A program made the position numbers and the translations under genes. Shown here in pieces: positions 1-2,290 of a stretch of DNA of 64,000 bases. Where the stretch lies: positions 3,488,001-3,552,000 of the forward strand of contig OY760937.1 in assembly GCA_963664225.1 (NCBI GenBank), in the 5' to 3' direction. This DNA comes from Verrucomicrobiia bacterium. Its GTDB lineage: Bacteria > Verrucomicrobiota > Verrucomicrobiia > Limisphaerales > UBA1319. Numbering within the stretch: position 1 is the first letter of the stretch; every line of letters begins with the position of its first letter. Under the pieces are notes generated by a model. That model saw only the letters and a program-made list of their open reading frames with translations, ran no database searches and had not been told where the DNA came from.

Positions 1-304
1 GCCCGAACTGGGAACCCTCAACCGGGGCCAGGCGGCAGCCCTGGCGGGGCTGGCCCCGTGGGTGCGCCAGAGCGGCCCTTGGGAAGGCCAGCGTCACATT
101 GGTGGCGGCCGGACCGGGGTGCGCCGCGCCCTCTACATGGCCTCCGTGGCAGCGGTGCGCTGCAATTCCATCCTCAAGGCCTTTTATAAGAGGCTGCGGG
201 CGGCGGGCAAGAAGCCCAAAGTGGCGCTGACAGCAGTGATGCGGAAACTCATCGTATTGATGAATCATGCCCTAAAAGATCCCAGATTCTGTGTTGCTCC
301 ATGA
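1..304 (+). CDS. IS110-family transposase/recombinase, C-terminal part (5' end outside window)
   Basis: Frame open from base 2: PELGTLNRGQAAALAGLAPWVRQSG...GGRTGVRRALYMA...FYKRLRAAGKKPKVALTAVMRKL, the IS110 Transposase_20 signature; TGA at 302-304. Confidence 0.93.
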   Translation, partial: PELGTLNRGQAAALAGLAPWVRQSGPWEGQRHIGGGRTGVRRALYMASVAAVRCNSILKAFYKRLRAAGKKPKVALTAVMRKLIVLMNHALKDPRFCVAP

Positions 305-314
305 CACCGTTGCT
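1..314 (+). mobile_element. Right end of an IS110-family element ending ...TGACACCGTTGCT, inserted in a REP
   Basis: Identity with intact REP copies (873-917, 2067-2111) starts exactly at the CT at 313-314; very short right end after the stop. Confidence 0.8.
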
Positions 315-2290
315 GCCGTATCGCGGATTTCCAATCCGCCAACCGACTCAAACTCGCAAGGCGCAGAACTTCATCCTACGGCATGCAGAAACGCCATAAA
401 ACGCCATCGGAGCGCCATTTCGTAAAACCTACCAAACTGCGTGCCCCCCCACCCGCTGGCTCGCTATCAAAATCCACCACGGATCGCCACGTTTATCCAC
501 CTTCCAAACCGCCCAATTAACCGCTCGACTTGCGGAACTTTCAATTCCTCAATTATCCATCATTTCTTCCCACGCCAAACCCACTGGCGCGCGGCCTTTG
601 AGGGTTTTGTATGGAGTCCCGTCTTTAGACGGCGCAGCATTCAAAAGGAGGGAAGTTTGAATATTTCTAACCCTCTCGATAATCCGATGACCTGCTCGAA
701 TTCGTAAAATCCACCATTATTCTATTTTCCAATCAAACGATTCCCTTCAAGCATCCCGGCAGGGATCGCAGACCCTTTTCAATGAGCTCGCGTCCCGCCC
801 GGTCAATCGCAATCAAAATCTCTATCGGACCGCCACGTTTATCCACCTTCTTGCGCGTCCAAACCGCAACTCGTAGCGCAGACATCCTGTCTGCCGTATC
901 GCGGATTTCCAATCCGCCAACCGACTCAAACTCGCAAGGCGCAGAACTTCATCCTACGGCATGCAGAAACGCCATAAAACGCCATCGGAGCGCCATTTCG
1001 TAAAACCTACCAAACTGCGTGCCTCCCCACCCGCTGGCTCGCTATCAAAATCCACCACGGATCGCCACGTTTATCCACCTTCCAAACCGCCCAATTAACC
1101 GCTCGACTTGCGGAACTTTCAATTCCTCAATTATCCATCATTTCTTCCCACGCCAAACCCACTGGCGCGCGGCCTTTGAGGGTTTTGTATGGAGTCCCGT
1201 CTTTAGACGGCGCAGCATTCAAAAGGAGGGAAGTTTGAATATTTCTAACCCTCTCGATAATCCGATGACCTGCTCGAATTCGTAAAATCCACCATTATTC
1301 TATTTTCCAATCAAACGGTTCCCTTCAAGCATCCCGGCAGGGATGCCAGCGATTAGCCGGGGGTCGAGGTCGTCCGCGACCGACACCCCCGGACACCCAA
1401 CCCAACCAACACGATCCCGGCAGGGATCGCAGACCCTTTTCAATGAGGTCGTGCCTCCCCGCCCGGTCAATCGCAATCAAAAGCTCCGTAGGAGCGTCAT
1501 GTTTATAGAAATCCAACAACCACGATATTCAAGCTCCAGAGGACCGCCACGTTTATCCACCTTCCAAACCGCCCAATTAACCGCTCGACTTGCGGAACTT
1601 TCAATTCCTCAATTATCCATCATTTCTTCCCACGCCAAACCCACTGGCGCGCGGCCTTTGAGGGTTTTGTATGGAGTCCCGTCTTTAGACGGCGCAGCAT
1701 TCAATAGGAGGGAAGTTTGAATATTTCTAACCCTCTCGATAATCCGATGACCTGCTCGAATTCGTAAAACCCACCATTATTCTATTTTCCAATCAAACGA
1801 TTCCCTTCAAGCATCCCGGCAGGGATGCCAGCGATTAGCCGGGGGTCGAGGTCGTCCGCGACCGACACCCCCGGACACCCAACCCAACCAACACGATCCC
1901 GGCAGGGATCGCAGACCCTTTTCAATGAGCTCGCGTCCCCGCCCGGTCAATCGCAATCAAAAGCTCCGTAGGAGCGTCATGTTTATAGAAATCCAACAAC
2001 CACGATATTCAAGCTCCAGAGGAGCGGCATGTCCATCCACCTTCTTGCGCGTCCAAACCGCAACTTGTAGCGCAGACATCCTGTCTGCCGTATCGCGGAT
2101 TTCCAATCCGCCAACCGACTCAAACTCGCAAGGCGCAGAACTTCATCCTACGGCATGCAGAAACGCCATAAAACGCCATCGGAGCGCCATTTCGTAAAAC
2201 CTACCAAACTGCGTGCCTCCCCACCCGCTGGCTCGCAATCAAAATCTCCATCGGATCGCCACGTTTATCCACCTTCCAAATCGCCCAATT
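313..2290. repeat. Mosaic array of long direct repeats built from several REP-like palindromes
   Basis: 313-766 is near-identical to 891-1344 (offset 578); about 1066-1543 recurs at offset 480-482; about 841-1095 recurs at offset 1194. The same 88-aa ORF appears at 441 and 1019. Confidence 0.95.
873..917 (+). repeat. GTAG-type double-hairpin REP (second intact copy 2067-2111; IS110-interrupted copy 313-339)
   Basis: GTAGC-GCAGAC-atcct-GTCTGC-cgtatc-GCGGATT-tcc-AATCCGC. Confidence 0.8.

Follow-up and report, generated by a model that had tools for sequence, protein, structure and literature searches.

An IS110-group element inserted in REPs of a Verrucomicrobiia bacterium probably carries its own bridge RNA in its left end

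IS110-group elements have a long left and a short right non-coding end, and the IS1111 group shows the reverse (PMC11208160). In the published descriptions of IS621 from Escherichia coli (PMC11208160, PMC11208158), the element has a DEDD and serine recombinase, a CT core, the right donor TGTAT and REPs as targets. Its bridge RNA begins with a 5' stem-loop; a target-binding loop follows, made up of the left guide, a hairpin, a GU linker, the right guide and the handshake pair, and then comes a donor-binding loop. REPs are also the insertion sites of two IS110 elements of Pseudomonas putida. ISPpu9 is present in several copies, all described as lying in REP sequences (PMC12288879). For ISPpu10, the left target is reported to be the 3' arm of the target stem-loop, with a fold that is better conserved than its sequence; its left guide tolerates mismatches and its right guide is stringent (10.64898/2026.03.19.712850). 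REPs with a GTAG tag have been divided among 24 families and reported in Verrucomicrobia, namely in Opitutus terrae (Di Nocera et al. 2013, PMC3733652).

We analyzed a stretch of 64,000 nucleotides from a Verrucomicrobiia bacterium (hereafter the window), which begins inside an IS110-group element. The whole element is 1197 bp long (genome G000:C1:3487118-3488314, where genome position = 3487117 + element coordinate), and window positions 1-314 are its 3' part. The genome carries five full copies, four at 100% and one at 99.75% identity, and their ends are identical. Its non-coding ends, 248 nt ahead of the ATG and 10 nt past the stop, are long on the left and short on the right, as in the IS110 group. 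We put the probability that it picks its insertion site through a bridge RNA encoded in this 248-nt left end, situated just upstream of the window, at roughly 0.9. In the features described in those accounts the element resembles IS621: the recombinase type, the CT core, the TGTAT right donor, the use of REPs and the order of the predicted RNA parts, GU linker included.

The window holds codons 212-312 and the stop of the recombinase gene (1-304, plus strand), recognized from the open reading frame list, its translation, Pfam, NCBIfam and a match to IS621; the 5'-open reading frame at 2-304 ends in DPRFCVAP before the stop. The complete reading frame encodes 312 amino acids (G000:C1:3487366-3488304; L001:2366-3304). 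An N-terminal RuvC-like DEDD domain (PF01548, residues 10-148, E = 9.4e-18) and a C-terminal Tnp domain with the conserved serine (PF02371, residues 192-275, E = 8.5e-18) are both present. The protein scores 191.3 bits against NF033542, "IS110 family RNA-guided transposase", for which the cut-off is 140. It matches the IS621 chain 8wt6_A over residues 9-303 (E = 7e-34), with the DEDD residues and the serine conserved. D13, E55, D97 and D100 lie in GLD, EATG and DPID motifs aligned with those of IS621, and S236 in RQSG aligns with the ESG of IS621.

The preliminary description had read this locus as an IS110 element inserted at the CT core of a double-hairpin REP, and the flanks bear that out. 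We searched one repeat unit (window 823-1400) against the genome with BLAST. Unit positions 2-70 were 100% identical to the DNA ending at the element's first base and positions 69-522 were 99.6% identical to the DNA starting at its last CT; the flanks therefore overlap by exactly CT. The likeness to the empty unit reaches about 450 bp rightward and about 300 bp leftward of the element, far beyond chance. The element ends 10 bp past its stop and runs into the REP, as had been claimed: the stop is followed by CACCGTTGCT (305-314), then GCCGTATC, then the intact second REP hairpin GCGGATTTCCAATCCGC (323-339, plus strand), of which the genome census counted 20 exact occurrences. Within the right end (305-314, plus strand; the same in the five copies), the left-donor heptamer ACCGTTG occupies 306-312 and the core CT 313-314. 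On the other side, the upstream DNA ends in GTAGCGCAGACATCCTGTCT, which is the REP 5' half that had been predicted there.

Two uninterrupted double-hairpin REPs lie nearby on the plus strand, both reading GTAGCGCAGACATCCTGT-CT-GCCGTATCGCGGATTTCCAATCCGC. The first (873-917, genome 3488873) consists of the GTAG tag, hairpin 1 at 877-893 with the core CT at 891-892, and hairpin 2 at 901-917. The second (2067-2111, genome 3490067) has its core CT at 2085-2086. They had been described as two empty target copies next door; uninterrupted copies they are, but they are not isolated REPs. They belong to units of 482-578 bp in a mosaic tandem array (315-2290, unstranded; repeat families D1-D5), delineated by BLAST of one unit. 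The element interrupts the first unit of this array, the left part of which lies upstream of the window. We also examined an 85-bp array for unique spacers of the CRISPR kind; its unit is repeated in full, which makes it a plain tandem repeat.

All five copies occupy the same CT of a GTAG-tagged double-hairpin REP, in the same orientation relative to the REP; the preliminary description had called for this comparison, and the remaining four full copies indeed share the site and the REP family. CT is present at both junctions of every copy and once in the empty site. The left flanks read GTAGCGCAG-N7-CT and the right flanks GCCGT(A/T)(T/C)CGC, with the right target GCCGT at 315-319 (plus strand) in the window. 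It is highly improbable that the copies spread because REP-bearing repeat units duplicated or recombined homologously with one another, and not through targeted transposition. REPs do sit in tandem and dispersed mosaic repeats, and the copies at 2,568,922 and 2,578,157 have near-identical flanks. However, the five copies show at least four different outer flanks and three hairpin-1 variants, the array units next to the occupied one are empty, every copy has junctions that are exact to the CT, and three of the five share no long flanks beyond the REP. Near-random insertion, with selection sparing only the copies in harmless intergenic REPs, is hardly credible. Insertions in non-coding REPs should be tolerated, but five of five copies sit at the same nucleotide and in the same orientation relative to the REP, although CTGCCGT occurs 864 times in the genome and CT dinucleotides are far more numerous still.

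The REP unit reads GTAG-C-GCAG NNN TCC NNN CTGC. The arms ACA/TGT, GTT/AAC, ACT/AGT and GCT/AGC all pair, and many other arms occur in the same frame among relatives. A stem-loop with a terminal GTAG tag and complementary stem variants is one mark of a GTAG-tagged REP; others are many dispersed copies and a cognate RAYT (Y1 transposase) gene bordered by the repeats. We counted 74 hairpins and 30 tagged double-hairpin sites in the genome, a low copy number for a REP, and many of these copies lie within tandem arrays. Across the order, the motif was present in 42 of 151 genomes, in up to 208 copies (the reversed control was near zero), and the frame GTAGCGCAG-N9-CTGCCGT is conserved. The described GTAG-tagged REPs (PMC3733652) likewise start with GTAG, have a 3-nt loop on a 7-bp stem whose variants are complementary, occur in clusters and carry a conserved 3-nt tail after the stem-loop. 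They differ in that no RAYT gene adjoins the repeats in the present genome: none of its nine PF01797 (Y1_Tnp) matches has a hairpin of the REP family within 1.5 kb. The comparison was with the general description in that paper.

The left end is predicted to encode a non-coding RNA that has two internal loops as well as a 5' stem-loop. The 248 nt fold at -108 kcal/mol (z = -6.55), which none of 200 shuffles equaled, and the predicted fold resembles the IS621 bridge RNA. The predicted parts are two 5' stem-loops (element 16-57 and 58-89), a target-binding loop (91-160) that contains the left guide, an inner hairpin (116-135), the right guide and the handshake dinucleotide CA, and a donor-binding loop (172-230) with the left and right donor guides. 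In 33 aligned left ends, 83.6% of cells pair in this structure versus 70.3% in shuffles, 32 of its 42 pairs change on both sides, and 0 of 500 shuffles score as high. RNAalifold recovered the GC hairpin, the target loop's outer stem and, in the donor loop, the base of the inner stem. A search of the 4-kb locus with Rfam 15 returned no bridge RNA family, only a sub-threshold Antizyme_FSE match over the GC hairpin. In a search of 150 other genomes of the order, the left end had no close copy; the matches, at 71-80% identity in eight genomes, were confined to the conserved part of the donor loop.

The preliminary description had expected an upstream guide matching this REP. Two loop segments lie where the IS621 model predicts them: UUCCAAUCU (element 106-114) for the left half-site and ACGGCAG (element 138-144; L001:2255-2261) for the GCCG side. 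The right target guide is CTGCCGT in reverse complement, so that it reads GCCGT together with the core CT; it is exact at seven of seven positions in all five insertions. The left target guide matches the loop and 3' arm of REP hairpin 1, and here the expectation needs one qualification. Four copies match at eight of nine positions, the difference being a single G.U wobble in two of them and a single mismatch in the other two, but the window copy matches at six of nine (four of seven outside the core), with three mismatches. In the donor-binding loop, the left donor guide ACCGUUAC (element 178-185) matches ACCGTTGC at the element's right end at seven of eight positions, and the mismatch falls at position 7, described as tolerant (PMC11208160). 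The right donor guide AUUUGCAAG (element 215-223) matches the element's left end: its CAAG pairs with CTTG and its AU with the AT of TGTAT, as described for IS621, and its letters are those given for IS621 positions 157-162 and 165 (PMC11208158).

The guides also vary together with their targets. Among relatives, 128 of 210 left-guide positions agree with the left flank of the same element (69.3 expected), and 74 of 90 right-guide positions agree with its right flank (35.6 expected). None of 10,000 permutations reached either value, figures that overstate independence because the relatives are akin to one another. This bears on whether the recombinase alone recognizes the hairpin of the REP, by its DNA structure or by its sequence, the left-end RNA having no role in site choice. 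Such recognition would suit a target that is a structured palindrome with compensatory stem changes, as well as the one insertion that tolerates three left-guide mismatches, and in ISPpu10 the target stem-loop is reported to raise efficiency (10.64898/2026.03.19.712850). However, the covariation extends to relatives whose targets are not REPs, and the same account reports that the ISPpu10 stem-loop could not replace base pairing. The genome's second IS110 family, with the same protein fold and donor ends, uses pyrimidine-rich non-REP sites that match its own different guides (GGGAG with CTCCC, AGGAG with CTCCT). We consider protein-only recognition very unlikely. The right end ACCGTTG-CT is shared by this second family and by most relatives, and the guides of two separate element branches aim at the same CT of the REP frame.

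If site choice is guided by a bridge RNA, the working cycle can be outlined by analogy with IS621. [quoted passage not shown] The putative promoter at the circle junction is weak (TTGCTC-17-TATGTT, 7/12 matches; 7-8/12 at best), and a scan of the integrated left end found no plus-strand promoter. No right-end/left-end junction was present in the assembled contigs of four of the 23 public runs, and contigs cannot show rare forms. Some public contigs have joints that skip the 1197 bp; with sides of only 18-28 nt, they are compatible with empty REPs at other places in the genome, and they do not show the window locus to be polymorphic.

Several features set the element apart from IS621 as published. 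The protein match is distant, the predicted RNA has one 5' stem-loop more, the right target guide is 7 nt long compared with 4 nt in natural IS621, and the left-donor heptamer, the REP family and the host (Verrucomicrobiota) are all different. Moreover, 20 hairpins in the genome read TTCCAATCTGC, which would fully match an IS621-style 11-bp target, and none is occupied; the element therefore does not simply follow the IS621 rules of pairing. ISPpu9 differs in having a small-RNA gene downstream of its transposase gene (PMC12288879), where the present element has only 10 nt after the stop. With ISPpu10 the element shares the insertion of an IS110 element into REPs, and the natural sites resemble the ISPpu10 pattern (10.64898/2026.03.19.712850): the right side is perfect in five of five copies and the left side has 0-3 hard mismatches (none in the two G.U-wobble copies). 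The host phylum and the REP are different, and the pattern here is read from the distribution of natural insertions. We regard the element as a clear but ordinary example of a mechanism already described in 2024, which leaves knowledge of that mechanism unchanged; it adds a fully readable natural case of bridge-RNA targeting in Verrucomicrobiota.

Across the five natural insertions, the left guide tolerates mismatches and the right side is invariant. The left guide fits other REP variants better than the window's own site. No site in the present genome matches it perfectly; a perfect 14/14 site is present in another genome of the order. Sites with at most one hard left-guide mismatch were occupied in 4 of 15 cases and those with more in 1 of 15 (Fisher p = 0.33, not significant), and the apparent trend of occupancy over left-guide mismatches (2/3, 2/12, 1/9, 0/5) is not significant either. 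As a tentative and rather doubtful idea, this series may reflect a target rule with two layers, operating outside Pseudomonas, in which guide pairing is combined with the REP fold. The 7-nt right guide would read the REP segment that does not vary across the order (CTGC-CGT) and never be mismatched, and the left guide would read the variable loop and 3' arm with up to three mismatches, only if the hairpin fold is kept. Under such a rule the REP fold would be a second recognition layer, and one guide could reach a whole family of REP variants, including those of hosts other than its own. On this reading, any REPs that carry the element's 7-nt left donor in place of the 7-nt left target could be scars left when excision went wrong. 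The scar pattern GCAG-NN-ACCGTTG-CTGC was not enriched in a search of the order (5 matches in 4 of 151 genomes, compared with 14 for the reversed control). The genome offers five insertions, 25 empty sites and a sister family with different guides, and could thus be used as a small natural data set for studying how mismatches are tolerated.

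The genome of the Verrucomicrobiia bacterium (G000) is a single contig of 5,783,426 bp with 56% G+C, on which the window occupies G000:C1:3488001-3552000. The reading frame of the IS110-group element is open at the start of the window and closes with a TGA stop at 302-304, after which ten bases (CACCGTTGCT, 305-314) form the right end of the element. To its right lie GCCGTATC and then the hairpin GCGGATTTCCAATCCGC, and the same right-hand sequence recurs at 873-917 and 2067-2111, where it follows GTAGCGCAGACATCCTGT-CT. The preliminary description was correct in all of its coordinates on re-reading of the sequence, and the IS110 element that it placed at the CT of a double-hairpin palindromic repeat (REP) is real. 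As it had predicted, the left flank is the REP 5' half: the upstream DNA ends in ...CAACTCGTAGCGCAGACATCCTGTCT, where the element starts with TGTATGTTTGAATTT... The element spans 3487118-3488314 (1197 bp, including the right-hand CT). We tested these boundaries by aligning one neighboring unit of the repeat (window 823-1400) to the genome. Unit positions 2-70 stop exactly at the first base of the element and positions 69-522 begin at its terminal CT, so the flanks overlap by CT alone, the pattern that recombination at a 2-nt core leaves.

BLAST recovered five full-length copies from the genome, four identical and one at 99.75%. All five have a left flank of GTAGCGCAG, seven variable letters and CT, and a right flank reading GCCGT(A/T)(T/C)CGC(A/G)G..TTCCAA..GC. 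The variable part is GTTTCCAAC in two copies, ACTTCCAGT in two and ACATCCTGT in the window copy. Every variant retains a 7-bp stem and a TCC loop (e.g., GCAGACA-TCC-TGTCTGC), and the insertion point is within the 3' arm of hairpin 1.

The genome has 74 REP-family hairpins and 30 tagged double-hairpin sites (GTAGCGCAG-N9-CTGCCGT), 5 with the element and 25 without. GTAG-tagged REPs, including those of Verrucomicrobia, were described by Di Nocera et al. 2013 (PMC3733652), and the target fits the available text of that description in its tag, stem length, complementary variants and clustering. Our literature search on REPs in Verrucomicrobia found no other relevant paper. The G000 repeats occupy mosaic arrays of several longer modules, not hundreds of dispersed singletons. 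None of the nine Y1-transposase matches in the genome is within 1.5 kb of a REP-family hairpin, so the G000 repeats lack the neighboring RAYT gene expected of a REP. Of 151 genomes sampled from the order, 42 had the REP frame, in at most 208 copies with many different complementary arms; a reversed control was near zero.

The recombinase ORF (L001:2366-3304, in the upstream locus record) encodes 312 aa with PF01548 and PF02371, and scores 191.3 bits against NF033542 ('IS110 family RNA-guided transposase', cut-off 140). Residues 9-303 align with the IS621 recombinase (PDB 8wt6, E = 7e-34) and also with ISCro4, and the motifs of the IS621 catalytic D, E, D, D and S are kept as GLD, EATG, DPID and RQSG. 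The non-coding ends of 248 nt (left) and 10 nt (right) have the IS110-group layout, in which, according to the available text of PMC11208160, a long left end holds the bridge RNA and the right end is short. The predicted left-end fold (-108 kcal/mol, z = -6.55) was equaled by 0/200 shuffles, and the RNA had no matching family in Rfam.

The accessible part of PMC11208158 gives the IS621 layout as a stem, a linker, a 9-nt left guide, a 1-base linker, a hairpin, a GU linker, the right guide, two handshake bases and a stem. The predicted RNA follows this order, and we assigned the guides by reading the left end on it. The left target guide is UUCCAAUCU (L001:2223-2231), followed by U, the hairpin GGUCUGG-UGAAAG-CCAGACC, GU and then the right target guide ACGGCAG (L001:2255-2261) with handshake CA. 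These segments, read in the target loop, bear out the earlier expectation that the left end holds guides matching the REP. Under the pairing rule given in the available text of PMC11208160, the left guide reads like the top strand across the left target and core, and the right guide is complementary to the core plus right target. CTGCCGT, the exact complement of the right guide, is present at 5/5 insertions. The left guide differs from TTCCAAC-CT (two copies) at one position, where it would form a U.G wobble against the bottom strand, and has one mismatch with TTCCAGT-CT (two copies) and three with ATCCTGT-CT (the window copy). The REP frame is constant and its arms vary, so the invariant part (CTGC and the tail CGT) is read by the right guide and the variable part by the left.

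In the second loop, ACCGUUAC agrees with the element right end ACCGTTGC at 7/8 positions; the exception, position 7, tolerates mismatches according to the same part of PMC11208160. AUUUGCAAG pairs with the left end CT-TGTAT discontinuously, as in IS621, and has the IS621 letters at the positions named in the accessible text of PMC11208158. The handshake CA complements TG, the last two left-donor bases, as the handshake model outlined there requires. Flank, guides and copies together support the initial reading of a REP-targeting bridge recombinase. As an IS110-group member, the element is well preserved and ordinary, and its predicted bridge RNA is of the IS621 type and targets a GTAG-type REP. 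By homology, it would be transcribed, excised and catalytically competent. A candidate junction promoter, combining a right-end TTGCTC with TATGTT at positions 3-8 of the left end, is weak; by eye, the right ends of relatives also have TTGC at this distance from the core. Assembled contigs of public runs had no circle junction or locus-specific polymorphism, and no paper naming the element was found in literature searches not directed at it specifically.

A second IS110 family in G000, whose protein is 56% identical to that of the element, has five copies outside the window (771094-772270, 2701689-2702865, ~1738419-1739595, ~1795125-1793949 and ~3173222-3172064). They form two subtypes, 92-94% identical, and the ORF is shortened to 274 aa in at least one copy (B3). 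The donor ends are those of the element (ACCGTTG-CT / TGTAT) and the guides differ, aiming at pyrimidine-rich non-REP sites: the subtype whose right guide ends in GGGAG sits before CT-CCC, and the subtype with AGGAG before CT-CCT.

A search of species-representative genomes found 68 loci, chiefly in Verrucomicrobiota assemblies. We aligned 33 left ends, from the element, two sister-family copies and 30 of the 33 loci with a recognizable CT-TGTAT start, omitting L024, whose target loop is deleted, as well as L047 and L049, which nearly duplicate L042 and L046. RNAalifold recovered the GC hairpin, the outer target-loop stem and the donor-loop hairpin at its base. In the named full structure, 83.6% of cells pair (70.3% in shuffles) and both sides change in 32/42 pairs, with 0/500 shuffles reaching the observed value; sliding the partners along lowers pairing to 35-43%. 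Across relatives, the guides covary with their own flanks. For the 30 elements with a left flank, 128/210 non-core positions agree with the left guide (69.3 on permuted pairings), a count that includes three rows with the guide out of alignment register. Right guides agree at 74/90 positions (35.6 on permuted pairings) in the 18 elements with a recognizable right end, L046 (pattern failed) and elements lacking the end being left out. In either test, 0/10,000 permutations reached the observed agreement, figures that overstate independence because the aligned rows are mutually related.

We built a recombinase tree from 30 sequences (the element, one sister-family member and 28 loci), in which the REP-inserted elements, four in all, form two separate, well-supported groups. 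The element pairs with L012 (support 96/94), which is on a 1880-nt contig binned as Binatia, a weak label owing to the short contig. L029 and L033 (100/100) are nested in the sister-family clade; their left guide differs (UUGCAGUCU) and their right match is shorter, yet they use the same CT in the same REP. The REP label changes twice on the tree, and well-supported branches force at least two changes.

The simple IS621 rule does not fit every site observation for the element. No site in G000 is perfect for both guides, and the best of its 864 CTGCCGT sites has one mismatch. Twenty hairpins reading TTCCAATCTGC offer a perfect left guide match, the core and two further bases, which would suffice for the natural 11-bp target of IS621, yet 0/20 are occupied, because the following bases are not CGT. 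Occupancy dropped as hard left mismatches increased (2/3 sites with none, 2/12 with one, 1/9 with three and 0/5 with four); a split at one left mismatch was not significant (p = 0.33). The natural sites show the same strict-right, tolerant-left pattern that the available text of a preprint reports for ISPpu10 mutagenesis within a conserved stem-loop (10.64898/2026.03.19.712850). A 'half-match' preprint, in its accessible part, offers another route to such mismatched insertions (10.64898/2026.08.31.748434). Outside G000, two genomes of the order, G003 and G124, have four listed copies and one listed copy, respectively, of the perfect 14-mer within the REP frame; these REP copies (GTAGCGCAGATTTCCAATCTGCCGT) would be 14/14 targets of the guides. 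The left end of the element was not found in either genome.

A REP copy at G000:C1:4456903-4456924 (minus strand, outside the window) reads GTAGCGCAGAC-ACCGTTG-CT-GCCGTATCGCGG... without the element, and the 7-nt right-end heptamer of the element stands in place of the 7-nt left target. A 1197-bp deletion shifted by 9 nt through the 4-nt microhomology GACA between REP and element right end could explain this copy. Across the order, the scar pattern was not enriched over a reversed control. A diverged module, AAAGCACAGTC-ACCGTT(G/A)-CT-GC(T/C)GTTACGCAGCC, has the right-end 10 nt of the element beside a REP-like tail at G000:C1:3485573 (L001:573-584, ~2.4 kb upstream of the window), ~2333510 and possibly 2142249 and 2142448. 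This 10-nt match could be an ancient scar duplicated together with the module, or could be due to chance. A 62-nt left-end remnant at G000:C1:3572944-3573005 (L011), 21 kb past the window end, is 98% identical to element positions 6-67 and directly follows ...GGGTTTCCAACCT, the best-matching left half-site. It begins TGCAG, not TGTAT, and other parts of the element are absent.

Window 315-2290 is a mosaic tandem array whose 482-578-bp units combine three or more shorter modules, which are also found alone elsewhere. The module at ~1330-1400 has its own arrays at 619213-622969 (seven copies, ~615-bp period) and 2566585-2568341 (eight copies, mostly 204-bp period). A palindromic 26-mer, GAGCGCCGGTCTCC-N-GACCGGCTTAC, recurs with an 85-bp period in many arrays (e.g., G000:C1:3241770-3242620). 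Conservation of the entire 85-bp unit marks these arrays as tandem repeats, not CRISPR. The 26-mer also occurs as a single copy ~2.48 kb upstream of the window, and its core palindrome has 54 plus-strand matches in the genome.
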